From contig NC_090404.1 in NCBI RefSeq assembly GCF_036365525.1, forward strand, positions 20,715,134 through 20,779,133: a stretch of DNA of 64,000 nucleotides. Direction: 5' to 3'. This stretch comes from Heterodontus francisci (taxonomy: Eukaryota). Below the pieces are notes generated by a model that worked only from the letters and a program-made list of their open reading frames with translations, did no database searches and was not told where the DNA came from. Made by a program: the position numbers and the translations under genes. Each line of letters begins with the position of its first letter. Positions within the stretch are counted from its first letter, which is position 1. Below are positions 1,551 to 60,755 of this stretch, in pieces.

Positions 1551-1728
1551 TCTCTGGGTATTTCACTCGGAGCCGTGTCAGATCCCTTCAAAAATATTCC
1601 ATTCTATCAAAACAAAAACACGAGCCTGGGAGTTGTTGCACTAATCTGTTCGTTTCAATTAGTGCAATTTAATGGAAAAGATCAAACCAACTAATTATCT
1701 CCCTGGAGCCTGACATCTGTTATAAATA
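1551..1728 (+). promoter_or_regulatory. Putative proximal promoter of GPCR gene 1
   Basis: TATAAATA at 1721-1728, ~50 bp before the ATG; CTAATTATCTCCCTGGAG at 1691-1708; TGACA at 1711; CAATTAG at 1656. The block is conserved upstream of gene 2. Confidence 0.65.
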
Positions 1729-1777: not shown

Positions 1778-1847
1778 ATGCATGGATCGGCGAAAGGTCC
1801 TGTGTTTGCCATTTACTATCCCATCCTTGCAGCTATTGGGGTTCCAG
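1778..1847 (+). CDS. GPR139/GPR142-like GPCR gene 1, coding exon 1
   Basis: ATG...MHGSAKGPVFAIYYPILAAIGVP, then a G|GTAAAG donor (phase 1). Joins in frame to exon 2 at 13640, and resembles the GPR139 TM1 segment VYYSLLLCLGLP-A-N. Confidence 0.88.
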
Positions 1848-4444: not shown

Positions 4445-4885
4445 TGTTATCACAGTGTAAATGTAGATCTGTTGTGTTATTGACACTTACTGTGGGTTTA
4501 TTATCTCACTGTTTTCCTGGTGTAAATGTAGGTCTATTGTGTTCTTAACATTGTTACAGTGGGTGAATTGTCACACTGTTAGCACGGTGTAAATGTAGTT
4601 CTATTCTATTATTGACACTGTTACTGTGGGAGGCTTATCACACTATTATTACAGTGTAAATGTTGTTCTGTTATCTTCCCTGCGCTGTTACTGTGGGTGA
4701 ATTATCACACCGTTATCGCGGTGTAACTGGGGTCCTTCTGTGTTATTGGTACTGTTACCGTGCGTGAATTATCACAGAAATGTCACGGTGTAAATGCAGT
4801 TGTGTTGTGTTACCGGCACTGTTACTGTGGGTGACTTAATCTCTGTTACCATGGTGTACATCGAGTTCCACTGTGTTAATGTTAT
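4445..4885. repeat. ~67-bp intronic tandem array, 3' part
   Basis: About six more copies of the same 67-bp unit. Confidence 0.85.
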
Positions 4886-7606: not shown

Positions 7607-10293
7607 TCCAGTAAGAACAGAGAAGTTGGTAAAAGAGGGGGGGGGGGGTGACATTGTTAATCAAGGAGAGTATTACGGCGGCAGAAAGGACGTTTGAGGA
7701 CTCGTCTACTGAGGTAGTATGGGCCGAGGTTAGAAACAGGAGAGGAGAGGTCACCCTGTTGGGAGTTTTCTATAGACCTCCGAATAGTTCCAGAGATGTA
7801 GAGGAAAGGATAGTGAAGATGATTCTCGACAGGAGCGAGAGTAACAGGGTACTTGTTATGGGGGACTTTAACTTTCCAAATATTGACTGGAAATACTATA
7901 GTTCAAGTACTTTAGATGGGTCAGTTTTTGTCCAGTGTGTGCAGGAGGGTTTTCTGACACAGTATGTAGACAGGCCAACCAGGGGCGATGCCACATTGGA
8001 TTTGGTACTGGGTAATGAACCCGGCCAGGTGTTAGATTTAGATGTAGGTAAGCACTTTGGTGATAATGATCACAATTCGGTTAGGTTTACCTTAGCGATG
8101 GGCAGGGACAGGTACATACCGCAGGGCAAGAATTATAGCTGGGGGAAAGGAAATTATGATGCGATTAGGCAAGATTTAGGATGCGTAGGATGGGGAAGGA
8201 AACTGCAGGGGATGGGCACAATCGAAATGTGGAGCTTATTCAAGGAGCAGCTACTGCGTGTCCTTGATAAGTATGTACCTGTCAGGCAGGGAGGAAGTCG
8301 TCGAGCGAGGGAGCCATGGTTTACTAAAGAAGTTGAAGCGCTTGTCAAGAGGAAGAAGAAGGCTTATGTTAGGATGAGACGTGAAGGCTCAGTTAGGGCG
8401 CTTGAGAGTTACAAGCTAGCCAGGAAGGATCTAAAGGGAGAGATAAGAAGAGCAAGGAGAGGACACGAGAAGTCATTGACGGATAGGATCAAGGAAAACC
8501 CTAACGCTTTCTATAGGTATATCAGGAATAAAAGAATGACTAGAGTTAGATTAGGGCCAATCAAGGATAGTAGTGGGAAGTTGTGTGTGGAATCAGAGGA
8601 GATAGGGGAAGCGTTAAATGAATATTTTTCGTCAGTATTTACAGTAGAGAAAGAAAATGTTGTCGAGGAGAATACTGAGATACAGACTACTAGGCTAGAT
8701 GGGATTAAGGTTCACAAGGAGGAGGTGTTAGCAATTTTGGAAAGTGTGAAAGTAGATAAGTCCCCTGGGCCAGATGGGATTTATCCTAGGATTCTCTGGG
8801 AAGCCAGGGAGGAGATTGCAGAGCCTTTGTCCTTGATCTTTATGTCGTCATTGTCGACAGGAATAGTGCCGGAAGACTGGAGGATAGCAAATGTTGTCCC
8901 CTTGTTCAAGAAGGGGAGTAGAGACAGCCCTGGTAATTATAGATCTGTGCGCCTTACTTCGGTTGTGGGTAAAATGTTGGAAAAGGTTATAAGAAATAGG
9001 ATTTATAATCATCTTGAAAAGAATAAGTTCATTAGCGATAGTCAGCACTGTTTTGTGAAGGGTAGGTCGTGCCTCACAAACCTTATTGAGTTTTTTGAGA
9101 AGGTGACCAGACAGATGGATGAGGGTAAAGCCGTGGATGTGGTGTATATGGATTTCAGTAAGGCGTTTGATAAGGTTCCCCACGGTAGGCTATTGCAGAA
9201 AATACGGAAGTATGGGATTGAAGGTGATTTAGTGCTTTGGATCAGAAATTGGCTAGCTGAAAGAAGACAGAGGGTGGTGGTTGATGGCAAATGTGCATCC
9301 TGGAGTTTAGTTACTAGTGGTGTACCGCAAGGATCTGTTTTGGGGCCTCTGCTGTTTGTCATTTTTATAAATGACCTGGATGAGGGTGTAGAAGGGTGGG
9401 TTAGTAAATTTGCGGATGACACTAAGGTCGGTGGAGTTGTGGATAGTGCCGAAGGATGTTGTAGGTTACAGAGGGACATAGATAGGCTGCAGAGCTGGGC
9501 TGAGAGATGGCAAATGGAGTTTAATGCGGAAAAGTGTGAGGTGATTCACTTTGGAAGGAGTAACAGCAATGCAGAGTACTGGGCTAATGGGAAGATTCTT
9601 GGTAGTGTAGATGAACAGAGAGATCTTGGTGTCCAGGTGCATAAATCCCTGAAGGTTGCTACCCAGGTTAATAGGGCTGTTAAGAAGGCATATGGTGTGT
9701 TAGCTTTTATTAGTAGGGGAATTGAGTTTCGGAGCCACGAGGTCATGCTGCAGCTGTACAAAACTCTGGTGCGGCCGCACCTGGAGTATTGCGTGCAATT
9801 CTGGTCACCGCATTATAGGAAGGATGTGGAAGCTTTGGAAAGGGTGCAGAGGAGATTTACTAGGATGTTGCCTGGTATGGAGGGAAGGTCTTATGAGGAA
9901 AGGCTGAGGGACTTGAGGTTGTTTTCGTTAGAGAGAAGGAGGAGGAGAGGTGACTTAATAGACACAGATAAGATAATCAGAGGGTTAGATAGGGTGGATA
10001 GTGAGAGTCTTTTTCCTCAGATGGTGATGGCAAACACGAGGGGACATAGCTTTAAGTTGAGGGGTGATAGATATAGGACAGATGTCAGAGGTAGTTTCTT
10101 TACTCAGAGAGTAGTAGGGGCGTGGAACGCCCTGCCTGCAACAGTAGAAGAATCGCCAACTTTAAGGGCATTTAAGTGGTCATTGGATAGACATATGGAT
10201 GAAAATGGAATAGTTTAGGTCAGATGGTTTCACAGGTCGGCGCAACATCGAGGGCCGAAGGGCCTGTACTGCGCTGTAATGTTCTATGTTCTA
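7607..10293 (+). mobile_element. 5'-truncated CR1 LINE nested in the Harbinger
   Basis: Contains the 856-aa ORF2; 3' tail GGGCCGAAGGGCCTGTAC...TTCTATGTTCTATG. Confidence 0.93.
7648..10218 (+). CDS. CR1 ORF2 (partial endonuclease + reverse transcriptase), uninterrupted frame
   Basis: Motifs GVFYRPP, MGDFNFP, DHN, KSPGPDG, DFSKAFDKV, GVPQGSVLGP, KFADDTK and RPHLEYC. Confidence 0.92.
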   Translation: MTLLIKESITAAERTFEDSSTEVVWAEVRNRRGEVTLLGVFYRPPNSSRDVEERIVKMILDRSESNRVLVMGDFNFPNIDWKYYSSSTLDGSVFVQCVQEGFLTQYVDRPTRGDATLDLVLGNEPGQVLDLDVGKHFGDNDHNSVRFTLAMGRDRYIPQGKNYSWGKGNYDAIRQDLGCVGWGRKLQGMGTIEMWSLFKEQLLRVLDKYVPVRQGGSRRAREPWFTKEVEALVKRKKKAYVRMRREGSVRALESYKLARKDLKGEIRRARRGHEKSLTDRIKENPNAFYRYIRNKRMTRVRLGPIKDSSGKLCVESEEIGEALNEYFSSVFTVEKENVVEENTEIQTTRLDGIKVHKEEVLAILESVKVDKSPGPDGIYPRILWEAREEIAEPLSLIFMSSLSTGIVPEDWRIANVVPLFKKGSRDSPGNYRSVRLTSVVGKMLEKVIRNRIYNHLEKNKFISDSQHCFVKGRSCLTNLIEFFEKVTRQMDEGKAVDVVYMDFSKAFDKVPHGRLLQKIRKYGIEGDLVLWIRNWLAERRQRVVVDGKCASWSLVTSGVPQGSVLGPLLFVIFINDLDEGVEGWVSKFADDTKVGGVVDSAEGCCRLQRDIDRLQSWAERWQMEFNAEKCEVIHFGRSNSNAEYWANGKILGSVDEQRDLGVQVHKSLKVATQVNRAVKKAYGVLAFISRGIEFRSHEVMLQLYKTLVRPHLEYCVQFWSPHYRKDVEALERVQRRFTRMLPGMEGRSYEERLRDLRLFSLERRRRRGDLIDTDKIIRGLDRVDSESLFPQMVMANTRGHSFKLRGDRYRTDVRGSFFTQRVVGAWNALPATVEESPTLRAFKWSLDRHMDENGIV

Positions 10294-13639: not shown

Positions 13640-14547
13640 CTAACTTGGCAGTGATTGTGATCCTGTCCCGAGGAAGATGCGGTCTCTCCAGATGTATCAC
13701 TTACTACCTGATGTCCATGGCAGTGACGGATCTCCTGATCATCATCACCGCTGTGATATTTAACCGGATTGTTGGTATTTATTTCCCAGGCAGTATCCTG
13801 TTCACCACACCCGTATGCAGTTTCCGTATTGCCCTAAATTATGTGATCATGGACAGTTCTGTCTGGTTAACGGTCACTTTCACCATTGATCGATTTGTGG
13901 CCATTTGCTGCCAGAAGCTGAAAATAAAATACTGCACCGAGAAAACAGCGGGACGGGTTATTGGAATCGTGCCTATAATGAGCTGTTTAAAATATACGTT
14001 CCAGTATTTTATATATGAACCTTTGTATATAATTAACGATATACCCTGGTTCTGCAAAATAAAATTAGCATTTTACACATCAAATGCATGGATTGCATAT
14101 GACTGGATTCGCCGCATTTTAAACCCTTGTCTCCCATTCATTCTGATTTTACTGCTCAATGCTCTGACCGTCAGACACATTCTCGCGGCCAGTGGAGCCC
14201 GCAGGAGACTCCGGGCTCACAGCAATGGAGAGACTCAGAGTGACCCAGAGATGGAGAGGCGGAGAAACTCCATCATTTTACTCTTCTGTATCTCGGGCAG
14301 TTTCGTCCTGTTATATCTGTTACGTCTTATAAATTTCCTTTTGGTCCGAATTGCGAAATTTAGTTATTTTTCTGGTACCAATTTCAGTGAATCAAATTAT
14401 ATTCTGGACCAAAGCGGATATATGTTTGAGCTTTTGAGTTCCTGTGTCAATCCGTTTATTTATGCAGGGACCCAGGGAAAATTCAGAGAGGAGTTACAGA
14501 ATGGAGTGAAATATGTACTGAGTCTAATTGTTAAATTGTTGAAATGA
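13640..14547 (+). CDS. GPR139/GPR142-like GPCR gene 1, coding exon 2 (spliced product 325 aa)
   Basis: Polypyrimidine tract and TACAG acceptor at 13639; motifs YLMSMAVTDLL, SVWLTVTFTIDRFVAIC, PCLPF and NPFIY; intact frame to TGA. Confidence 0.92.
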
Positions 14548-15175
14548 TGGGATAAGTAAAATCCAGCATGAATTACAGGTTATATTGCATCCATTGCTGT
14601 TCTTGTGCATTCACACACGGTCTCCCTCCCATAATCACTCGCTTTGAGATCGTTATCCATTGAGTGAATTTAAGAATGCATGATTCACCAATGCACAATT
14701 TAGTGCTGTGACATGTTCTCGTTTAGTTACCAGTTCCCTTCCCTGTGCTGACTCTAGCTTAATGCATTCCCTTCAGCCCCAGGGGCCCTGGAGTATATCT
14801 ACTTTCATATAGGAAACAGAGATTCCGACCTCTGATCTGTTATCAGATATCAATTTAAACTGTTCAATGAAGGGACATCAATATCCCTACTGAGAATGAT
14901 TTGGGTCTTAAGGATAGGATAGGCACTGAAATGGAATCGTGTAATGCCCCTATGCATTTGTCTCCAATCCATAGGCAACGCCTCACCGCCGCACTCTTGT
15001 GCCTATAAACATATGAGCAGAGCAAATGCCGGAGGAAAGAGCCGAAAACTAGTTCGCCTTTTTACATTTTTCATTGGCCAACTAGGACAACACCCCTGCG
15101 TCATCAAACAAAGTTAATTTATTTGAAAGAGTGCCCCCTTGTCCAAAGCGATGCAAACAATAAAGGCCCAAATCC

Positions 15176-15292
15176 ACATGTATCACTTACTACCTGATGT
15201 CTATGGCGGTGATGGCTGTTCTGGTCATGATCACCGCTATGATATTAAACTGGATTGCTGGATTTTTCCCCCCACTCAGTTTCCTGTCCTAG
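15176..15292 (+). pseudogene. Short relic of a GPR139-like exon 2 (TM2)
   Basis: TCITYYLMSMAVMAVLVMITAMILNWIAGFFPPLSFLS*, homologous to 13690-13805. Confidence 0.8.
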
Positions 15293-18640: not shown

Positions 18641-19164
18641 GTAATATTGGAAAAACTGACCAAAAGCGTAGTTAAAGAAGTCTATTTTAAGAACAGCCTT
18701 AAAGGAACGGAGGGGGAGAGAGGTAAAGAGGCAGAGTGATTTAGGGAGAGAAGTTCAGAGCTCAGGTTGCAGACATCTGAAGGCACGCTCAACAGTGGCG
18801 AAGTGATTAAAATCCGAATGCACAAAAGGGCATGATTCAAGGAGTGCAGAAGTCTTGGAAGCCCAGTTGAGTCTCAGGCTCCTAGCTCATTAGAGCATTT
18901 CCCCTGGTCAATCAGTGGCTCCTTCCCTCCTCCCCTCGCCCTATGTTTCCAACTAACTCCTAACTCGATCATCCTGTGTTCCCTAACATTTATGGGCACC
19001 GAGGCTCCAGTTGCCACTTCTAAAATGATTTACTGTATTTATCATGCCTTTTAAATTCCGCCAATCCTTGCATTTCCAGTTCTGACTGCATGAATCACGC
19101 TAATAGTTCTGAACCACCAATCCCGAGAGTGGACGTCCATGGTGAAGAGGCAATTAGGGCCAGA

Positions 19165-19262
19165 AAACTGAGATCCGTCACTGCCATGAACACCAGGTAC
19201 CAAGTGATATATCTGAAGAGACCACAACTTCCTCGGGACAGGATCACAATTGCTGCGATGCT
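19165..19262 (-). pseudogene. Inverted relic of a GPR139-like exon 2 start
   Basis: Minus strand reads SIAAIVILSRGSCGLFRYITWYLVFMAVTDL after a pyrimidine tract and CAG; homology ends after TDL. Confidence 0.82.
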
Positions 19263-21129
19263 CTGCGCAAAAAGGAGTAAAAAATTGAAATTACAATTTA
19301 GACTGCCATCGAGAGTCTTAGTTAGACCGGACTTGGTACAATACTTGTAAGATTACTGTTTGTACAAATGATCCTGCCCAATCGGCACAGATTTACTCAG
19401 TAAAGAAAGTTTGTCACCAAAAGACTTTCTACGTTTGATTTGAAGTTACAACCCGTTAAATTAGATTCTAAAAAGGAAAGAGAACGAAAGTACAGAAGAT
19501 ATTTAAACAAAAAATTAATCGATACATAACCTTAACATTAAATTGACTGAAAATTAGGGCTCGCCCTTTTAGAACAGAGGAGAATTTTTTCTCTCTCAGT
19601 GGGTTGTGTGACTTTGGAATTCTCTGCCTCAGAAGGTGGTGGAAGCGGGGTCATTGAATATTTTTTAAGGCGGGGGTGAATAGATTCTTGTCAGGCAAGG
19701 GAATCAAAGATTATCGGGGGTAAATGGGAGTGCGGAATTCGAGACAGAAACTGAAACATAGAAGGTGATCTTATTAAATGGCAGAGCAGGCTCGACGGGC
19801 TGAATGATTCTCCTAATCCGTATGGTATATTTAAAATCAACATGAAACTTATTATATTATATGAAACAGAGTGAGATGGGCTGCCATTTACACTTTGGGA
19901 GAATCACAAAGTGGCTCTCACACGGATTGACTCTGATTACAAATATTGGGAACTCGGTAAATGGTGCAGCCATTCTTCCAGTGTGCGTTGCAAAAGACAA
20001 TGAAGTAATTGACCAGTAATATGTATGTTTCTGGTACAGCCTGAGTGTCCAATATTGGCAAAGATAGAACTTCCAGCCGTTCCTCCACAAGGGACTGGGG
20101 CACTGTGTCAGGTATCTCAGTAAGGACGGCAATTCCCACAAGGAACACCCAGTGACAGCAGGAGATGGTCTTATGACATGCGGGATAGATGGTAAGGGAC
20201 TATTAGGGTGAATCATGTACCCAGAACAGGAAACGCAGCAAATGGCAGAATTTAAAAGGTATGATAAATGCTGTAAATCATTTTGGAAGTGGCGACTGGA
20301 GCCTCTGTGTCCATAAGGGATGATGAACTGTCGGTTTGAATTTGGATTTCAGCATCCACGGGATGATTGAGTTAGGAATTGAGTTAGGGCGAGGGGAGGA
20401 GGGGAGGAGCCACTGATTGACCAGTTCCAGTAATCAGACAGAGGGACTGCTCCGATCTGAAGTTGGAACCCGATACTCAAGCAGGATAGAGTTATAAAAT
20501 GTGCAACATCGAAGGTGATCTTTTGGCCCACATTATGCCCAAGCTGATTCTTTGGGAGAGCAATCCAGTAAGTCCTACTCACTTACCTTTTCCCTTAAGC
20601 CATGCAGTTTTGTTTTCAAATTCAAACACTTAAACTTTTCCTTTAGGGAGTTACTACTGAATCTGCTTCTACCACCCTTTCAGGCAGTGCATTCTAGATC
20701 ACCAATAATGCACTACATAAAACAAGTCTCTTAAAATCCCTTTCGGTCCTGTTGCCCATTGCAATGAATATATGTCCCCTGGTTCTTGATTTTGAATTTG
20801 TCAATTAACGCCACCCTCAACCTTCTCTTCTCTAAGGTGAACCACCCAAACTTGTCTGGTTTATTAAGATAATTGAAGCCCCATATTCTTTATTTATATT
20901 GCATGGTTCATCATTTATTGAGTTCTTGCTTTAAAACTGCCCTGAACAGCCGCCCTGCAGCCACTACTCGCCTTGCTATACTCCACTTCCATCTTTGCAC
21001 ATTGTTGCATACAATCTAATCCCTTATTTCACCACTACCCAGAGATGTTTATCCCAACAGCATCACACAAATAAACAAAATCAAATAGAAATGAAATAGA
21101 AGTTGGGAATTGAAAAGCAAACAAAATGC

Positions 21130-26310: not shown

Positions 26311-26854
26311 ATTCATTGAACTCTGACTTGGGTTGTCCTCACTTTCTCCCTTGTGAGTGTGTTCCTACACTGTGCCCGAACAACCCCCTCTTTGATGCCA
26401 TTCATTTCTTCATTACATTTCTGGCTACCAGTCTTTAACTCCAATTTGCCAGCGCCAGTTTCCTCCTCAGTCTGCTGGGGCCTTGGGATTACTAGTCTAA
26501 TGATATTACCACTACACCACCACCTCTCCGTAAAGGTGTGAATGAAGGTGTTGTTAAGCAGGATGAGGCAGATAAAGGAGGCATATGAAAAATGTCATTT
26601 GATAACACATGAAGGATCAGTCTGAATGTAAAAACGTACAGAGAAAAGGTGAAAAGGATATAAGATATATGGAGAGGCAGTACGAATATTGAAAACAAAA
26701 TTGAAGATTTGTCCTCCTACAGCTAAGTATTTTTCATCAAAATTGTTCCTTTTCCTTCTGCATAACTGATCTAAACATTAAAAGATTATAATCACCATTC
26801 CTGAGTTACTTCCCGACCATGTAATTCCCGAGGGCTAGATCCAGCAATGCCTCC

Positions 26855-28025
26855 ACAGTGAATGTAAACAGTGCTCAACTGGACCAGTGCACACTGAGTG
26901 CAACGTGCTTAACTGGACTTTTTCAGACCGAATGTCATCTCAGCTAACTGAACCTGTGCACACTGAAGGTAACCATGCTCATTGGACCTCATCACTGTAA
27001 ATGTAACTGTCCAAAACTGGACGTTTCTAAATAAATACAACCCTGCTGAACTGGAGCCACCCAGCCTGTAAGAAACCGTGTAGAACTGGACCTGCATACA
27101 CTGAATGTAACATAGCTGAACTAGCCATCTGCACACTAAATATAGCTGCACTGACCTGGGCAAGTTCACATTGGCAGTAACAATGTTGAATTTGTCCTGT
27201 CCATATCGAATGTAACTATACTGAAATGAAGCATACACAACAGAAATCAGCAATGCAGGACTGGACCTATCCACTCTGAACAGAAGTGGGCTGAACTGGA
27301 AGTCTTCACACTGAATATCAGCATGCAGAACTGGACCAATGGACTTTAAATACAACCGTTCTCACTCGACTGGTCTCCATCGAAGGCAACCATACTGAAT
27401 TGACCAGTTAACATTGAATGCAACCGTGTTGAACTGGACTTTCCCAAACTGGAAATTAGTGTGCCAACTGGATTTATGCAACTGGGCTCATCCCGTCAAA
27501 ACTGAGACTAATAGTGCTGAACTAAATATATGCACCGTGAATGCTACAAGCTGAACTGAACCTATGCACCCTGAATATAACGAGCTGAACCAGACCTGTG
27601 CACACTGAATAGAGCCACGCTGAACAGGAGCAGAATACACTAAATGTAACGGTGCTGATCTGGACTTCTCCACGCTGCACAAAACTGCGCCAATCAGAAT
27701 CAGTCCATGTAAATTTAACTCTGCTCAATTGAAATAAAAGCAAAATACTGCAGATGCTGGAAATCTGAAATAAAAACAGAAAGTGCTGGAAATACTCAGC
27801 AGGTCAGGCAGCATCTGTGGAGTGAGAAGAAAGTTAGCGTTTCAGGTCTGTGACATTTTATCAGAACTGGTGTTTATGAAAGGTCACAGGCCTGAAACGT
27901 TACCTCTACTTCTCTCTCCACAGCTGCTGAGTTTTTCCAGCAATTTCTGCTTTTATTTCTTCTCAACTGAAACATTGACAATCAATAATAAATGCAACCG
28001 TGCTGAACAGGAGATTTCCACACAG
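26855..28025. repeat. Diverged ~35-bp tandem array upstream of GPCR gene 2
   Basis: Same unit as 469-1310; interrupted at 27732-27958. Confidence 0.8.
27732..27958. mobile_element. Palindromic insertion made of two inverted Penelope-like termini
   Basis: The left arm is the reverse complement of the right arm (family of 47218-47356); flanked by CTCAATTGAA and CTCAACTGAA. Confidence 0.7.
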
Positions 28026-28300: not shown

Positions 28301-28478
28301 TCTCTGGGTATTTCACAATAGAGCTGTGTCAGAGCCCTTGAAAAATATTCCATTCCATCAAAACATCAACATGAGATTGGCAGCAGCTTCACTAATCTGT
28401 TTGCTTCAATTAGTGCAGATAATGTAAAAGATCAAGCCATCTAATTATTTCCCTCGAGCCTGACATCAGGTATAAATA
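28301..28478 (+). promoter_or_regulatory. Putative proximal promoter of GPCR gene 2
   Basis: TATAAATA at 28471-28478; CTAATTATTTCCCTCGAG at 28441-28458; TGACA at 28461; CAATTAG at 28407; collinear with the gene 1 promoter. Confidence 0.65.
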
Positions 28479-28527: not shown

Positions 28528-28597
28528 ATGCACGTATCACCAACCGGCCTGGTGTTTGCCATTTACTATCCTGTCCTTGCGGCTATCGGGGTTCCAG
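28528..28597 (+). CDS. GPR139/GPR142-like GPCR gene 2, coding exon 1
   Basis: MHVSPTGLVFAIYYPVLAAIGVP followed by a G|GTAAAG donor; 70 bp, as in gene 1. Confidence 0.9.
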
Positions 28598-28929: not shown

Positions 28930-29300
28930 GTTGTAAATGTAGTTCGACAGTGTTATTGGCGCTGTTACTGTGGGTGAATTATCACACTTTTATCACTGTG
29001 CATATGCAATTCTATTGGAATATTGATAGGTACCGGTGGCGAATTGTCAGACTGTTCTCATGGTGTAAATGTAGTTCTATCGTGCTCGTACAATGTAACC
29101 CGTGGGTCAATTATCATACTCTTATCACAGTGTGAATGTAGTGCTATTGGTTTACTGACACTGTTATTGTGGGTGAATTATCGCACTGTTATCACAATGT
29201 AAATGTAGTTGTATTCTGTTATTGACACAGTCATGGTGGATAAATTATCACACTGTTATCAGCATGTTCATGGAGATCTATTCTATCATTGATAATGACA
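28930..29300. repeat. ~67-bp tandem array in gene 2 intron
   Basis: About five units with the CTGTTACTGTGGGTGAATTATCACAC core. Confidence 0.8.
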
Positions 29301-30477: not shown

Positions 30478-31388
30478 CTAACTTGGCAGTGATTGTGATC
30501 CTGTCCCGAGGAAGATGTGGTCTCTCCAGATGTATCACTTACTACTTGGTCTCCATGGCGGTGACGGATCTCCTGGTCATTATCACCGCTGTGATATTCA
30601 ACCGGATTTCTGGTATTTATTTCCCATATAGTTTCCTGTCCGTCACACTAATATGTACGCTCCGTACAATGCTAAACTATGCAGCCGTTGATAGTTCTGT
30701 CTGGTTAACGGTCACTTTCACCTTTGATCGGTTTATGGCCATTTGTTGTCAGAAGCTGAAAATAAAATATTGCACCGAGAAGACGGCAGGTTGGGTTATA
30801 GGAACTGTGTGCGCGCTGAGCTGTTTAAAAAATACCTTCTTGTATTTTATATATGAACCATTGTACATAATTAACAATATGCCATATTTCTGTGGCATAA
30901 AATTAATATTTTATACGTCACCTGCATGGATTGCATATGACTGGATTCATCACATTTTAACCCCTTGCCTCCCATTCATTCTGATTTTACTGCTCAATGC
31001 TCTGACTGTCATACACATTCTGACCGCCAGTAAAGGCCGCAGGAGACTCCGGGCCCACAGCAATGGAAAGGCCCACAGCGACCCCGAAATGGAGAAGCGG
31101 AAAAAGTCCATTGTTTTACTCTTCTGTGTCTCTGGCAGTTTCATCCTGTTATATTTTCTAGATCTTATAGCTTTCCTCTATGTCCGAATTACAAGCGTTA
31201 CATATTTCTCAGGTTCTAATTTCAATCAATCAAATTTTATTCTGGAGGAAAGCGCATTTATGCTTCAGCTTTTGAGTTCCTGCATCAACCCCTTTATTTA
31301 CGCAGGAACCCAGAGTAAATTCCGAGACGAGTTAAAGAATGGAATGAAATATCCAGTGAGTCTAATTGTTAAATTAGTTAAAGGATGA
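30478..31388 (+). CDS. GPR139/GPR142-like GPCR gene 2, coding exon 2 (spliced product 326 aa)
   Basis: (CT)n tract and TTGCAG acceptor at 30477; SVWLTVTFTFDRFMAIC and NPFIY; intact frame. Confidence 0.92.
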
Positions 31389-45294: not shown

Positions 45295-48200
45295 TGTAAT
45301 GTACACAGACTGCAAGGTACCTATTTCCAAACAACATGGCAGGGGAGTGACAAGCCAAGATTTATGATTGTTATGTGTCTTGATTGTTGAAGTTTAGTTT
45401 CACTTTGGGATTGTGAAACAGTCAGTTGTTGCCTGGAGAGGAGAAAACTGCCCACCTTTCTCTTTGAAAAGAAATCCTCCATTTGCTGAGAAGAAACCCT
45501 GTGTTTCAAATGTGGCAGATTCCTATTGCCTCCTGTCTCTGAAGAATCCTGCATCAAACTGTACTGTTGCGTCGTGTGTTTTAAGAAGTCCTGAATGGTT
45601 GCAGAAACCTTGCATCTTAAAAAAAGACTTTGCATCAAATATGTAAGATCTAAGAAGATCCTTGTTGCTGATACTAGGTAGAAGACCTATGTGAAGCCTT
45701 CTGTAGTTGAATTTCTCTGAATACGTAACCAAACAGACTATTTATTGACCTCGCCTGGAAAGACTCCGAGTGGCATCCAAATATTCGACTTTGGGACACC
45801 TCGCCAAAACAAAAACTTCCTTCCAGATCTTTGCAGTCTAAATCATTGTGGTTTTAGCTTTTTGATTTCCTTTGAAACTGTTGTAAACAAGAATCCCTTT
45901 TCCCCGGTTAACCGGTTTTTGGGTGAATGTGTGTGAGGACGAGGAAATAAATAATACGGGGCATGAATAATTCAATTTGCGAATATATTTACTTCATTAT
46001 TGGTTAAGACTTGGTTTTATAATAAGTAGATAATTGTGTTGCTTATCAGAGAACCCTGGTTGGTGTGCTTTATTCTTGGGGCAAATAGAGCATCTAATTG
46101 GTTATTTCGGTAAGTGGCAACATTTGTTGATGTGTTGTGCCCTGTGGAGAAGTGGCACTGACTTGACAGTCCACTACTGCGGTTGAATTAGCTAAAATTC
46201 AATTACAACTGAAAAAAACTTGAGCAGGAACAGGAATTGGCAAAACTTAAGCTTCAACAATAAATGCAAAAAAGAAATAGCAGTAAGAAGACTTGGACAG
46301 GAAAAAGAAACAGAAAACCCTAAATTTGAGTTTGGACAAATGTGAAAATGAAAAAACCTTGCATTTGAGGGCAAGGAGAAGGAAAGAGCAAGACAAAGAG
46401 AGGGAAAGGAATGCAAATTAAGGGAGATGGAACTAAGACAACGGGGTGATCTTGACTCCAGGGAGAATTCTGGTCAGGAAGATTCTGAGTCCGGCCAGGA
46501 CCCAGCAAAAAGCTGTTTAAATTTTTATAAGCCGTCCCTATGTTTGAGGAAAGGGATGAAGAGGCATTTTTCATTTCTTTTGAAAAGATAGCCAAACAAA
46601 TGAAATAGCCAAAGGAAAGCTGGACACTGCTTATGCCAAGCAGATTGATGGGCAGATCTCAGGAAGTTTGTGTCATGCTTTTTGAGGAGGCTTCTGCAGA
46701 ATATGAGATGGCAAAAAGGCTATTCTCGCTGCGTATGAGTTAGTCCCTGAAGTTTACCGACAGACGTTTCAGAAGCTCCGGAGATTGGCTGGGCAGACGT
46801 ATATAGAATTTGAGAGGGTAACGCAAATTAATTTTGATCATTGGATACAGCATTAAAGATGGAAGCAAAGTATGAGAAACATAGAGAACTGGTTCTCCCA
46901 GAAAATTTTAAAAAATCATACTGAGAACTTAAACGTTTTCAAGAGTCAGACAGGCAGCGGAAATTGCTGATGATTTTGAGCTTGTGTACACCCCCAAAAA
47001 CCTGAGAGGGGTAGAAGGTGGGAGTGTGAAAGGAAGGCAAGTGGCCGGGGACAAGAAGGGACAGCTGAGAATGCCCTAGGATCACCTCCTCAGGCCATAA
47101 AGGAAGGGGCTGAGGGTAGAATTGAGGTCCACAAGCTGAAGTGTTACCATTGTCACAAGGTGGGACATCTTAATTCTGAATGCTGGAAGTTGGTACCTAA
47201 AGCTAATGCAGAGAAAGGGTTCTGAAGAAGGGTCACTGACCTGAAACGTTAACTCTGCTTCTCTTTCCACAGATGCTGCCAGACCTGCTGAGTATTTCCA
47301 GCATTTCTTGTTTTTATTTCAGATTTCCAGCATCCTCAGTATTTTGCTTTTATTATTGCAGAGAAAGAGGCTCTGACTGAGAGTACAGGAGATCAGGCTG
47401 TAGCTTAGACATCAGCTGCAATTCCTGAAAGTTAAAGTGATTTCTTGACAACAGGAAAAGTAACCCCTGATCCGTCAAGTGAGGCAGGCGAACCTATTGC
47501 TATACTTAGGGATACAGGAGCAAACTGTTTTGCTGGGTAAAGGTATAACATTGCCACCAGCGATCGCACTGAATGCTAAATCTTTAGTGAATGAGATTGG
47601 CAGGGAGTAGATACCCCTACCTTTATATCAGGTGTACCTAGAGTGTGACCGAATGTCTGAGACAGTAACTGTAGGAGTTGTCCATCGTTTGCTGGTAGAT
47701 GGAATTAACCTACTCCGAGGGAATAATTAGGCGAGAACAAAAGTATTAGCTTCTCCCGTAGTCACAGAGAAACCAAGTGAAGTTAAAGAAGCAGAACAGT
47801 TAAAGGAAAAAGTTATAGGAATATTTCCTTCATGCGTAGTAACCTGAGTAATGACTAAACGAGTTCCATTGTTGGTAGCAAAATTGGCACCACAGACAGA
47901 TAACCAAATGTGTGAAACCTTTTTGGGGATTCAGATAATCCAAATGAGAAGTTTAAAAAATTTTCTCGAATCACAGCTCAGCAAACTGATCCAGAATTGA
48001 ATAAAGTGACACAATCAGCTCTAACAGAAGCTGAGGCAAAAGGAGTTCCAGAAGGCTAATCTGTTAAAGATGGGGTTCTGATGAGAAAATGGGGACCGCC
48101 TCATTGACCTGCAGATGAAGAATGGATGGTTGTTTGACAGATAATGGCACCACCTAAGAATCGCTGGGAATTATTAAAGTTAGTGCATGAAATTTCGATA

Positions 48201-48900
48201 GCGCTACATATGGGGATCCGGAAGACCAAATCACGTATGAGTCTACATTGTTATAGCCAAGTCTTCCCAAGGACATGGTGCCGTTTTGTAAAACATGCCA
48301 TACATGCTAGATTGTGGGAAAACCATAACCTGCCATTAAACCAGCACTTCTAATTTCCATACCAGTTATTGGTGAACCATTTAGTAGGGTGTTGGTAGAT
48401 TGCATAGGACACTTACTGAAAACAAAAGAGGGACACCAGTATATACTCACTATCATGGATATGGCTGCTCGATTCCCAGAGGTAATTCCCTTGAGGACAA
48501 TCACTGCCAACGTAGTGGTAGAGAAATTAACCCAATTCATCACTAGATATGGATTACCGATTGAAATTCCATAAGATCACGGATCCAATGTTATGTCTAA
48601 AATGTTTCAAGAAGGTATGGGTAATTTGATTTTCACGCAGTTAAAGTCTTCAGCATATCGGCCACAGACATAGGGAGTTGTACCATCAGAGTCTCAAAAC
48701 AATGATTATAATACACTGAATATCACCATGATTGGAATAAAGGGCTAGATTTTCTTTTATTTGTCAATAGAGATTCATCGAAGGAGTCTACAGGTGTTAG
48801 TCCTTTTGAATTAGTTTATGGGCATGAGATAAGAGGTCCTCTAAAACTAATCCAAGAAAGGTTTTTGGAACATAGGGATGAATCTTCTGCACTAGACTAT
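45295..48900 (+). mobile_element. Gypsy (Gmr1-like) LTR retrotransposon remnant: LTR, gag, protease, integrase
   Basis: LTR from TGTAAT at 45295; gag FFISFEKIAKQM...YELVPEVYRQ; knuckle CYHCHKVGHLNSEC; protease LRDTGA; integrase VLVDCIG...MDMAARFPEVIPL directly after the protease. Confidence 0.85.
47218..47356 (+). mobile_element. Penelope-like terminal fragment with a minimal hammerhead-like motif
   Basis: 11-bp TSD TGCAGAGAAAG; CTGAAGA-stem-GAAACGTT core. Confidence 0.7.
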
Positions 48901-49502
48901 GGCCGGAATTTTATGCCACCGCAGCAGGATGGCCTTCCCGACCCGCTGCCGCCTCTGCCCCACTTTATGTGGGCCGCGGCGGGGGTGGGGGGTAGGGGGG
49001 TTGCGTGTGGGACAAGAAACGGACAACCGGCTCAAGGTCAATCAAGGCCCTTAAGTGGTCATTTAACAGCCCCAGGAGTGCGTCCTGACAAATGGTGCCC
49101 AATTGAGGGCCACTCCTGCTTCCCCAACCATCCCCAGAACTCGAGACTCCGCACTTCCCCCCATTCGACCACCCTTGCCTCGCCTGGGCGCGACCGGCGA
49201 GGCAACCCTAACTTACCTTTAGTCCTGGCTCCATGTCCTCGGCTGGGCTGCAGTCCCAGCAATGGCCACCTCTCCGGGTGGCGCTGCTGGGACTAAGAAC
49301 TGCCAGCCGGATCATTGGCTGGCAGCTCAATGAGGCGAGACTTCCTCCCTCAAGCGGGTGGAAGTCCTGCCTTGGCATAATTAAAGCCCGGGGACCCGTA
49401 AAATGCCAGACGGGGGCCCATAAAGTGTGGGATGGATCTCCGGGCCGGGCGGAAGCGAGTTCACCACCGACTTTTACGTACGCCCGACATAAAATCCAGC
49501 CC
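48901..49502. mobile_element. Harbinger-type MITE
   Basis: Ends GGCCGGAATTTTATG and CATAAAATCCAGCCC, matching the Harbinger TIR consensus at 6330. Confidence 0.75.
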
Positions 49503-59591: not shown

Positions 59592-60685
59592 TGAGGACGA
59601 TGTTTTTAATCCCCTTGAGCTGTTTCATTCACTGCCTACCACAAGCGCAGGCTGGCAGCTATGTCCTTCAGCACTTGGCCAGCTCAGTCATTGGTGATAC
59701 TAATGAGCCACTCTTTGTGATGGACATTTATGTCCCCTACTCAGAATATAGTCTAAGCTTGTACTCTATTTAGTGCTTCGCCTAAGTGATTTGAGCATTC
59801 GATGTACAGGTTTATCAGCTGAATAAAGGCAGTAGGTGATAATTAGCAGGAAGTTTCCTTGTTCATGTTTGCAATGCAGCCATGAACTGTTAAGGGGTAC
59901 ATCACCAACATTAAATATTGTCAGGGTCTCTATCCCCTGACTGGATCCCGCTGTATGCACATATCTGTGCTATTGGTGGACAGGAGTTATCCAAGGGTGG
60001 TGTTGGGAGATTTTGGAATGTAGACTGATACGAATGATTCTGAGTGTATGGATATATAAAGCAGTTGCTGAACTAGTCTGAGACAGCATTCCCAACTATA
60101 GTGCCAGTCCTCAGATGTTGGTGTGGAGGGATTTGCAGCATCGGCTGTGCCTGGGTTAGTATTTGTTGTCTCTGCATTCAATGCCTAGTTTGCAGCCCAT
60201 TAAATCCATCGTATTTATGCTTTTATTCATTTCTAGCTGATTGATACAGCTGACTGTTTCTTCTCGGCCACTTCAGAGGGCAGTTAAGAGTCAACTGAAG
60301 TGGTGTGGAATTGGAGTCACATCTGGGCGACACCAGATAAGAACGGCAGGTTTTATTCCATAAAGAAAATAAATTTCCCTTTAAAACTCTTTGGCATCTA
60401 TGTTTATCCATCCTATTGCTGCAGAAGTGAAGGTAAAATCAACTGCACTAACTTGTTTGCTCAGTGACTGTAAGTAACATTAATTGTGAAGTAACTTAAT
60501 CTATTTGTTTACTGACTGTATCTTAAAGGTGCTATCACTTAACATGTTTGTTCTGTGACTGTAACTAACATTAATGGTGATGTCATCTAATTGGAGGTTT
60601 AGAATCGGGTATAATTGAGGATCCTTTGAATACCGAACAGTGCTTGTGTGGAATGCCAAACAGACATCACTGCATCTCAAAGAAA

Positions 60686-60755
60686 ATGCACGCCCCATCC
60701 AGAGGCCTAGCGTATGCCATTTACTACACTGCCCTTGCAGCTATCGCTGTTCCAG
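60686..60755 (+). CDS. GPR139/GPR142-like GPCR gene 3, coding exon 1 (exon 2 not in window)
   Basis: MHAPSRGLAYAIYYTALAAIAVP followed by a G|GTAAA donor; same 70-bp length and GAAATGCA-like start context as genes 1 and 2. Confidence 0.85.

Follow-up and report, generated by a model that had tools for sequence, protein, structure and literature searches.

A putative homeodomain-led core promoter in a large family of elasmobranch G-protein coupled receptor genes

In a window of 64,000 nucleotides from the horn shark Heterodontus francisci (contig NC_090404.1, positions 20,715,134 to 20,779,133; the whole stretch of DNA analyzed here), sequence comparisons very probably identify a real core promoter, kept by selection, of a large and undescribed family of elasmobranch G-protein coupled receptors (GPCRs). 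Positions 1480-1777 would represent the compact proximal promoter of one gene in a tandem family of orphan receptors, copied along with each gene and maintained by selection. The core common to the family would consist of a homeodomain site, a CTGAC element and a TATA box, to which a large subfamily would add a weak EBF-type site within the core and a second one ~150 bases upstream. We propose that a homeodomain factor of the Lhx2/Emx2 type, aided by EBF where its site exists, would load TBP at the TATA box, that transcription would start ~30 bases downstream of this box in chemosensory neurons, with microvillous neurons of the nose as the most plausible type, and that each receptor would be tuned to different ligands through a variable pocket. 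That such a homeodomain-led core promoter works in chemosensory neurons is a tentative reading, which we place somewhat short of probable. The features are summarized in Table 1.

Table 1. Predicted promoter elements and exons of the three receptor genes in the window.
Feature	Position	Strand	Remarks
Distal O/E-like site, gene 1	1551..1560	+	TCTCTGGGTA; 6/8 palindrome bases
Conserved block with second homeodomain-type site	1641..1665	+	CAATTAG at 1656; 23/25 identical, genes 1 vs 2
Proximal homeodomain-type site, gene 1	1691..1697	+	CTAATTA
Proximal O/E-like site, gene 1	1700..1709	+	TCCCTGGAGC; 6/8, 2 bp after TAATTA, subfamily-restricted
CTGACA element between O/E-like site and TATA box	1710..1715	+	
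TATA box, gene 1	1721..1728	+	TATAAATA; 57 nt before ATG
Exon 1, gene 1	1778..1847	+	ATG, 23 codons + 1 base, GT donor
Exon 2, gene 1	13640..14547	+	spliced product 325 aa, Pfam 7tm_1
Promoter, gene 2	28301..28478	+	elements at 28301, 28407 and 28441-28467; TATA at 28471
Exon 1, gene 2	28528..28597	+	
Exon 2, gene 2	30478..31388	+	spliced product 326 aa
Promoter core, gene 3	60587..60616	+	CTAATTG and TATAAT, 22 bases apart; no O/E-like site
Exon 1, gene 3	60686..60755	+	open frame, GT donor

Two intact two-exon class A GPCR genes are present in the window, both with Pfam 7tm_1 matches (325 aa and 326 aa), together with exon 1 of a third family gene, gene 3 (exon 1 at 60686), which an earlier note on this DNA had not mentioned and for which exon 2 was not found inside the window. 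Based on GT/AG signals and the N-termini of annotated relatives, genes 1 and 2 are predicted to be spliced across introns of 11,792 and 1,880 bases, respectively, and the N-terminus encoded by exon 1 of gene 1 matches the type of the annotated family proteins. Exon 2 of gene 2 shows 98% identity to P0001, a Heterodontus francisci protein named 'probable G-protein coupled receptor 139'. The database model of gene 1, P0045 (13414-14547), begins with an ATG in the intron and leaves out exon 1, located 11.8 kb upstream; wrong N-termini of this kind were seen in many family models. Part of the length of the 11.8-kb intron of gene 1 is occupied by an 861-aa open frame (7633-10218) which, judged by eye, has the look of a LINE reverse transcriptase. 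Two short pseudogene pieces of the start of receptor exon 2 were also observed, at 15092-15289 (+) and, inverted, at 19119-19352 (-).

All motifs quoted in the earlier note were found in genes 1 and 2 at the positions it had reported. The 25-mer CTAATTATCTCCCTGGAGCCTGACA occupies 1691-1715 in gene 1 and has its counterpart at 28441-28465 in gene 2; it had been described as standing immediately before the TATA box, from which 5 bases in fact separate it. CAATTAG and TCTCTGGG are conserved in both genes as claimed, the former at 1656 and 28407 and the latter at 1551 and 28301, where the 10-mer TCTCTGGGTA is identical. Homeodomain-type and O/E-like sites thus adjoin the TATA box in both promoters, and the O/E match is imperfect, as the note had cautioned, with 6/8 palindrome bases. 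Within 170 bases of the TATA box, genes 1 and 2 each hold two homeodomain-type and two O/E-like places. The spacing is the same in the two genes: the TATA box lies 57 nt from the ATG, and TAATTA (1692, 28442) lies 29 bases ahead of TATAAATA and 86 ahead of the ATG. Placed by the usual distance between a TATA box and a transcription start, transcription of gene 1 would begin near 1750. The CTGACA element, which we take to resemble a TALE-homeodomain site, occurs again near 1575-1581 on the minus strand. In the 27 bases that directly precede the ATG (1751-1777), the two genes are identical at 25/27 positions, a conservation equal to that of the motif block. This stretch reappears as SELL.EM-like extensions of protein models from horn shark, whale shark, and zebra shark, and is possibly a start-site or translation element.

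Genes 1 and 2 encode proteins of 76% identity (dS 0.41, dN 0.15, dN/dS ~0.36), and are 79% alike at fourfold sites, 70-72% in the alignable intron ends and 77% in the 3' UTR. Against this background the proximal promoter is identical at 244/297 positions (82%) and the motif block at 25/27. Promoter identity is above the 72% intron level (P=3e-5) and not above the fourfold level (82% vs 79%, P=0.10). As to motifs versus flanks, a comparison raised in the earlier note, the block likewise exceeds the intron level (binomial P=0.009 at 72%) and, in the alignment of genes 1 and 2 alone, does not exceed the remaining promoter (binomial P=0.11 at 82%); this pair therefore points to a constrained promoter rather than to a special motif. 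Further 27-base windows with 25/27 identities start at 1575-1588, 1639-1640, and 1751. In the comparison with shuffled DNA, also suggested earlier, a 27-mer pattern occurred twice in the window and in 0/100 shuffles; the pattern had been written from these two copies, which makes the control circular. A degenerate array of period 35 located upstream of genes 1 (440-1300) and 2 (26800-27720), 69% alike between them, served as a neutral baseline and was not seen upstream of gene 3.

These values bear on the view that only the TATA box matters and that the remainder is alike through recent duplication or gene conversion of a unit of promoter and exon 1. The closeness of promoter and fourfold identity is in line with this, as are the several other windows that match the conservation of the block and the many close paralogs from one species among the best 120 family matches (see below). 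We nevertheless consider it improbable, as the intron pieces and the upstream repeat array have fallen to 70-72% and 69%, and the wider sampling described in the following adds to this. The earlier note had allowed that conservation between the two paralogs may only reflect recent duplication; as the sole cause, this is contradicted by introns ~70% alike beside a promoter of 82% and a block of 25/27, at a dS of 0.41.

In order to sample further copies, contigs of one shark, possibly the source of the window, were placed on positions 1400-1950 (551 bases) at 80% likeness, giving 590 contigs in run X1, 269 of them <90% alike, and 593 in run X4. The block is spanned by ~55 aligned contigs of this shark, paralogous or allelic, and the majority letters at its edges (1690, 1718, and 1720) are carried by 53-55 contigs. 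At other variants the numbers were 12-24 in 1625-1665, 24-40 at 1589-1605, and 44-55 in exon 1, the low cover at 1628-1665 coming partly from changes private to gene 1 and an indel; all of these counts take in alleles and fragments and thus reflect sharing across dozens of copies, not gene number. Among the 40 of 120 variant rows listed, none falls in 1691-1717 or 1503-1567. The block at 1641..1665 was also retained in the loose-end consensus of 11 contigs. Three of the divergent-contig joints among those listed resume at 1692, 1693, and 1699, that is, at the left edge of the motif block, which argues against duplication as the source of its likeness. Summed contig depth peaks at 1685-1722, at ~3.7x the median of the other non-coding bins; contig depth cannot rank gene parts, and this peak was counted neither as evidence nor as copy number. 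In two runs of possible RNA type, 2 and 0 contigs were placed, the two lying upstream of the TATA box; the loose ends of one such contig resemble a transposase adapter.

The upstream DNA of gene 3 now aligns poorly with that of genes 1 and 2, yet CATCTAATTG and TATAAT are retained 22 bases apart. Such retention of CTAATT and TATAA between flanks that no longer align speaks against mere recent copying. In the 296 bases upstream of gene 3 no O/E-like site was found at 6/8, and its core holds no TCCC. The gene 3 promoter also shows internal duplication at 60400-60600, with periods of 91, 48, and 43 by autocorrelation, and four homeodomain-type sites were observed at 60390-60685. Long N-terminal extensions were present in 19 family proteins, two of which, P0040 and P0122, read as contiguous promoter translation, on the assumption that each extension corresponds to contiguous DNA translated in frame; the others were set aside as not being contiguous promoter translation. 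P0040, from horn shark, can encode TAATTA, TCCC, CTGAC, and TATAAA in the register of gene 1. P0122, from zebra shark, can encode TAATTA, CTGAC, and TATAAA, with TATAAA exactly 57 nt (19 codons) before the Met as in genes 1 and 2, and neither TCCC nor TCTC is encodable between TAATTA and TATAAA. A paralog of another shark order can thus encode the same three elements, a further point against recent duplication. When the promoter-derived N-terminus of P0040 was used in a region search, P0040 itself was the sole match (1/1 candidate).

In total, a homeodomain site near the predicted start was found in 3/3 window genes and is encodable in 2/2 informative protein extensions, the corresponding figures for the proximal O/E-like site being 2/3 and 1/2. 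Missing in gene 3 and not encodable in P0122, the O/E-like half appears not to be family-wide; the comparisons with gene 3, P0040, and P0122 instead suggest a deep core of homeodomain site, CTGAC, and TATA box, the O/E-like piece belonging to a subfamily. Use of the olfactory-neuron code, as proposed in the earlier note, accordingly finds partial support: the homeodomain site and the TATA box are kept in gene 3 and in the zebra shark paralog, whereas the O/E-like half is kept in neither. Judged from these alignments, the block is constrained beyond recent duplication.

In mouse, the Lhx2/Ebf composite has its two sites 1 bp apart and is enriched in enhancers and depleted from olfactory receptor (OR) promoters (PMC11643329, PMC12547500), so that the earlier note, which had placed adjacent composites in OR promoters and enhancers alike, is borne out for the enhancers and not for the promoters. 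Spacing matters in the published tests (PMC5608512, PMC11643329), and weak composites carry degenerate Ebf halves (PMC5608512). We scored the Ebf half as the palindrome TCCC-NN-GGGA, read from the OMP probe and not a matrix. At spacers of 0, 1, and 2, gene 1 matches 6, 4, and 6 of 8 bases and gene 2 matches 4, 4, and 6, and thus the only register good in both genes lies 2 bp from TAATTA; gene 3 reaches <=2/8. An Lhx2-type TAATTR site is present in all three (TAATTA at 1692 and 28442, TAATTG at 60588). Matches of 6/8 to the palindrome are common, with 214 places in the window, and of the seven homeodomain + 6/8 pairs at 0-2 bp in the window five lie outside the two promoters, so the motif match alone is weak. 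The dimer-shuffle control gave a mean of 0.58 pairs over 60 shuffles; the five non-promoter pairs are far above this mean, and the control therefore probably understates chance. The published 17-letter pattern for the composite was discarded as a test, having 148 exact and 1386 one-mismatch places in the window.

A true composite of the Greek Island type in each promoter, by which each gene would act as an enhancer of its own for olfactory-neuron choice, would accord with the fit of genes 1 and 2 to the published pattern (16/17 and 15/17 positions, respectively), with gene 1 reading like the core of the Sfaktiria probe minus its spacer base, and with the degenerate Ebf halves of weak composites (PMC5608512). 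The fit says little given 1534 window places at <=1 mismatch, the Ebf half reaches 4/8 in both genes at the 1-bp spacing to which the published tests are sensitive, composites are depleted from OR promoters (PMC11643329, PMC12547500), and gene 3 and P0122 lack the O/E-like half; such a composite is thus quite improbable. Membership in the Greek Island composite class was rejected on the 4/8 match at 1-bp spacing in both genes and on the promoter position.

Several sites elsewhere in the window are related to these motifs. The pair at 47729 (-) has 6/8 at the canonical 1-bp spacing and lies inside a decayed LTR-type retroelement with a protease-like motif (47400-48900), between that motif and two integrase matches below the Pfam cut-offs. 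The N-terminal extension of P0023 contains a near-identical piece of 47400-48900, and P0023 is therefore probably a mis-joined prediction. At 49370-49395, between genes 2 and 3, TAATTA has O/E-like matches on both sides (49378 + and 49383 -), which may be due to chance or mark an enhancer-like site. A 67-bp tandem array (4445-4838 and 28930-29300; also 2369-2590) is located in intron 1 of genes 1 and 2. Its units show a minus-strand TAATT core and then CCC, and the copy at 29113 scores as a homeodomain + O/E-like pair; the array may represent either a plain minisatellite or a homeodomain element in multimerised form.

The receptors belong to a family with 1918 related clusters at E<=1e-10 among 3485 candidates, a number in which more distant relatives may be counted. 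Among the best 120 of the 1918 clusters, 118 are named, all from sharks, and 84 come from a single species, where they are spread over at least five large contigs. A profile search reached members in skate and stingray as well as distant proteins from salamanders, coelacanth, teleosts, caecilian, and amphioxus (20/150 representatives looked up). The coelacanth protein falls in a group that spans jawed vertebrates, including sharks, and in which most species have a single cluster; clades of related low-copy proteins were seen in coelacanth, bony fishes, amphibians, reptiles, and sharks. In a tree of 38 rows, which contained no true GPR139, the 24 rows of the elasmobranch expansion group together (91/85, below the starred level), and, joined by a pair of salamander rows, the expansion makes up a starred clade separate from the low-copy group. 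No paper on the expansion or its promoter was found in a literature search that reached few subscription journals, and we regard this large elasmobranch GPCR family and its promoter as undescribed.

In a PDB search with the family profile, the top 4 sequences include human GPR139, with a score of 51 bits vs 54 for the TRH receptor, and in a fold alignment (7vug) GPR139 is no closer than the TRH receptor, in a search that does not separate class A subfamilies. Orthology to GPR139 was rejected on the 22% identity to 7vug and the many copies per species. The hallmarks of ORs are an OR-family sequence and an intronless coding region. OR membership was likewise rejected, since Pfam 7tm_1 is the only match at E<=0.01, an intron splits the coding region, and the top PDB matches are peptide-type receptors; the earlier note was thus right to call these receptors non-OR. 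At the positions that we take to line the ligand pocket, mean entropy is 1.44 bits, compared with 0.67 at other helix positions and 0.83 at other outer-half positions, and the observed contrast was reached by 1 and 0 of 20000 permutations, respectively. This comparison used 75 sequences, the near-standard-length subset of the best 120 matches, and is not a blind test, as the pocket positions were chosen after the entropy list had been seen. Together with the dN/dS of ~0.36 between genes 1 and 2, this suggests that the frame has been conserved while the pocket diversified, as would be expected for an array of sensors.

Most families that combine such a size with a variable pocket are chemosensory, a consideration that favors olfactory over other use. 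Immune and itch receptors likewise form families with variable pockets and tandem clusters. Many homeodomain proteins bind TAATTA, and EBF is active in B cells as well. The same constrained core promoter could therefore serve cells outside the nose (leukocytes, skin, sensory cells of gut or gill, or brain), with another factor at the homeodomain site and with TCCC being part of a different site or bound by EBF elsewhere. All of the evidence for constraint fits this equally well, and gene 3 and P0122 do without the O/E-like part. GPR139, the named relative, is chiefly a receptor of the brain, described without mention of sharks in the accessible part of the source (PMC12208981). On the other side, paired homeodomain-type and O/E-like sites near the TATA box represent the pairing reported for OR promoters (PMC12547500). 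On balance, a non-olfactory role is possible and, in our view, rather doubtful.

Sharks are reported to have only ~10-50 known olfactory receptors despite their large noses, and in the catshark nose ORs are not expressed and the neurons are seemingly microvillous only, with no ciliated ones (PMC10116579). This apparent lack of ciliated neurons counts against the olfactory reading in that it removes the best-known cell type for the code, but it leaves a nose with few known receptors. Olfactory use of the promoter, in chemosensory neurons as proposed above, is plausible, and the partial resemblance of the block to the switches of smell receptors hints at a large overlooked set of chemosensors in sharks. 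A more specific proposal, that sharks and rays possess one more olfactory family of very large size, which arose from a GPR139-like orphan clade, adopted the homeodomain/EBF code separately from ORs, V1Rs, V2Rs, and TAARs, and has one or a few of its genes active in each microvillous neuron, we hold to be unlikely as it stands. If true, it would undo the view of sharks as smelling with only 10-50 receptors, a repertoire that fits badly with their large olfactory organs (PMC10116579). An olfactory role would mean a further origin of vertebrate olfactory receptors and would provide a test of whether the homeodomain/EBF code predates the OR family and is independent of it. The family has a chemoreceptor-like size class and pocket variability, and a promoter of ~300 bases with separable conserved parts; more than the motif, it is the question of whether a large olfactory receptor family has been overlooked in sharks that makes it interesting.

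Compared with known systems, the shark block shares with the Greek Island composite a TAATTR followed in the same orientation by an Ebf-like half-palindrome (PMC5608512, PMC11643329, PMC7804114), and differs in its spacing of 2 bp rather than 1, in its place in a promoter beside a TATA box, and in its absence from some members. The orphan subtypes GPR210A/B have been named near GPR139/142, with no mention of sharks in the accessible part of that source (PMC6504862); the shark proteins are labelled 'probable GPR139' by NCBI, and relative to human GPR139 the family is ~22% identical in the fold alignment and expanded to very many copies in elasmobranchs. The mouse OR and V1R promoters are similarly short, with homeodomain-type and O/E-like sites near the predicted start of clustered GPCR genes (PMC12547500, PMC3247230). 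The mouse M71 promoter needs both sites (PMC12547500), and O/E-like sites occur in all 39 mouse V1R promoters examined (PMC3247230), so that a code of this kind extends beyond ciliated neurons. In contrast to these, the shark receptors are neither OR nor V1R, have a two-exon coding region, and carry a TATA box fixed 57 nt before the ATG. In its mode of action the shark promoter would thus resemble an OR or V1R promoter with separate weak sites, unlike a Greek Island composite enhancer.
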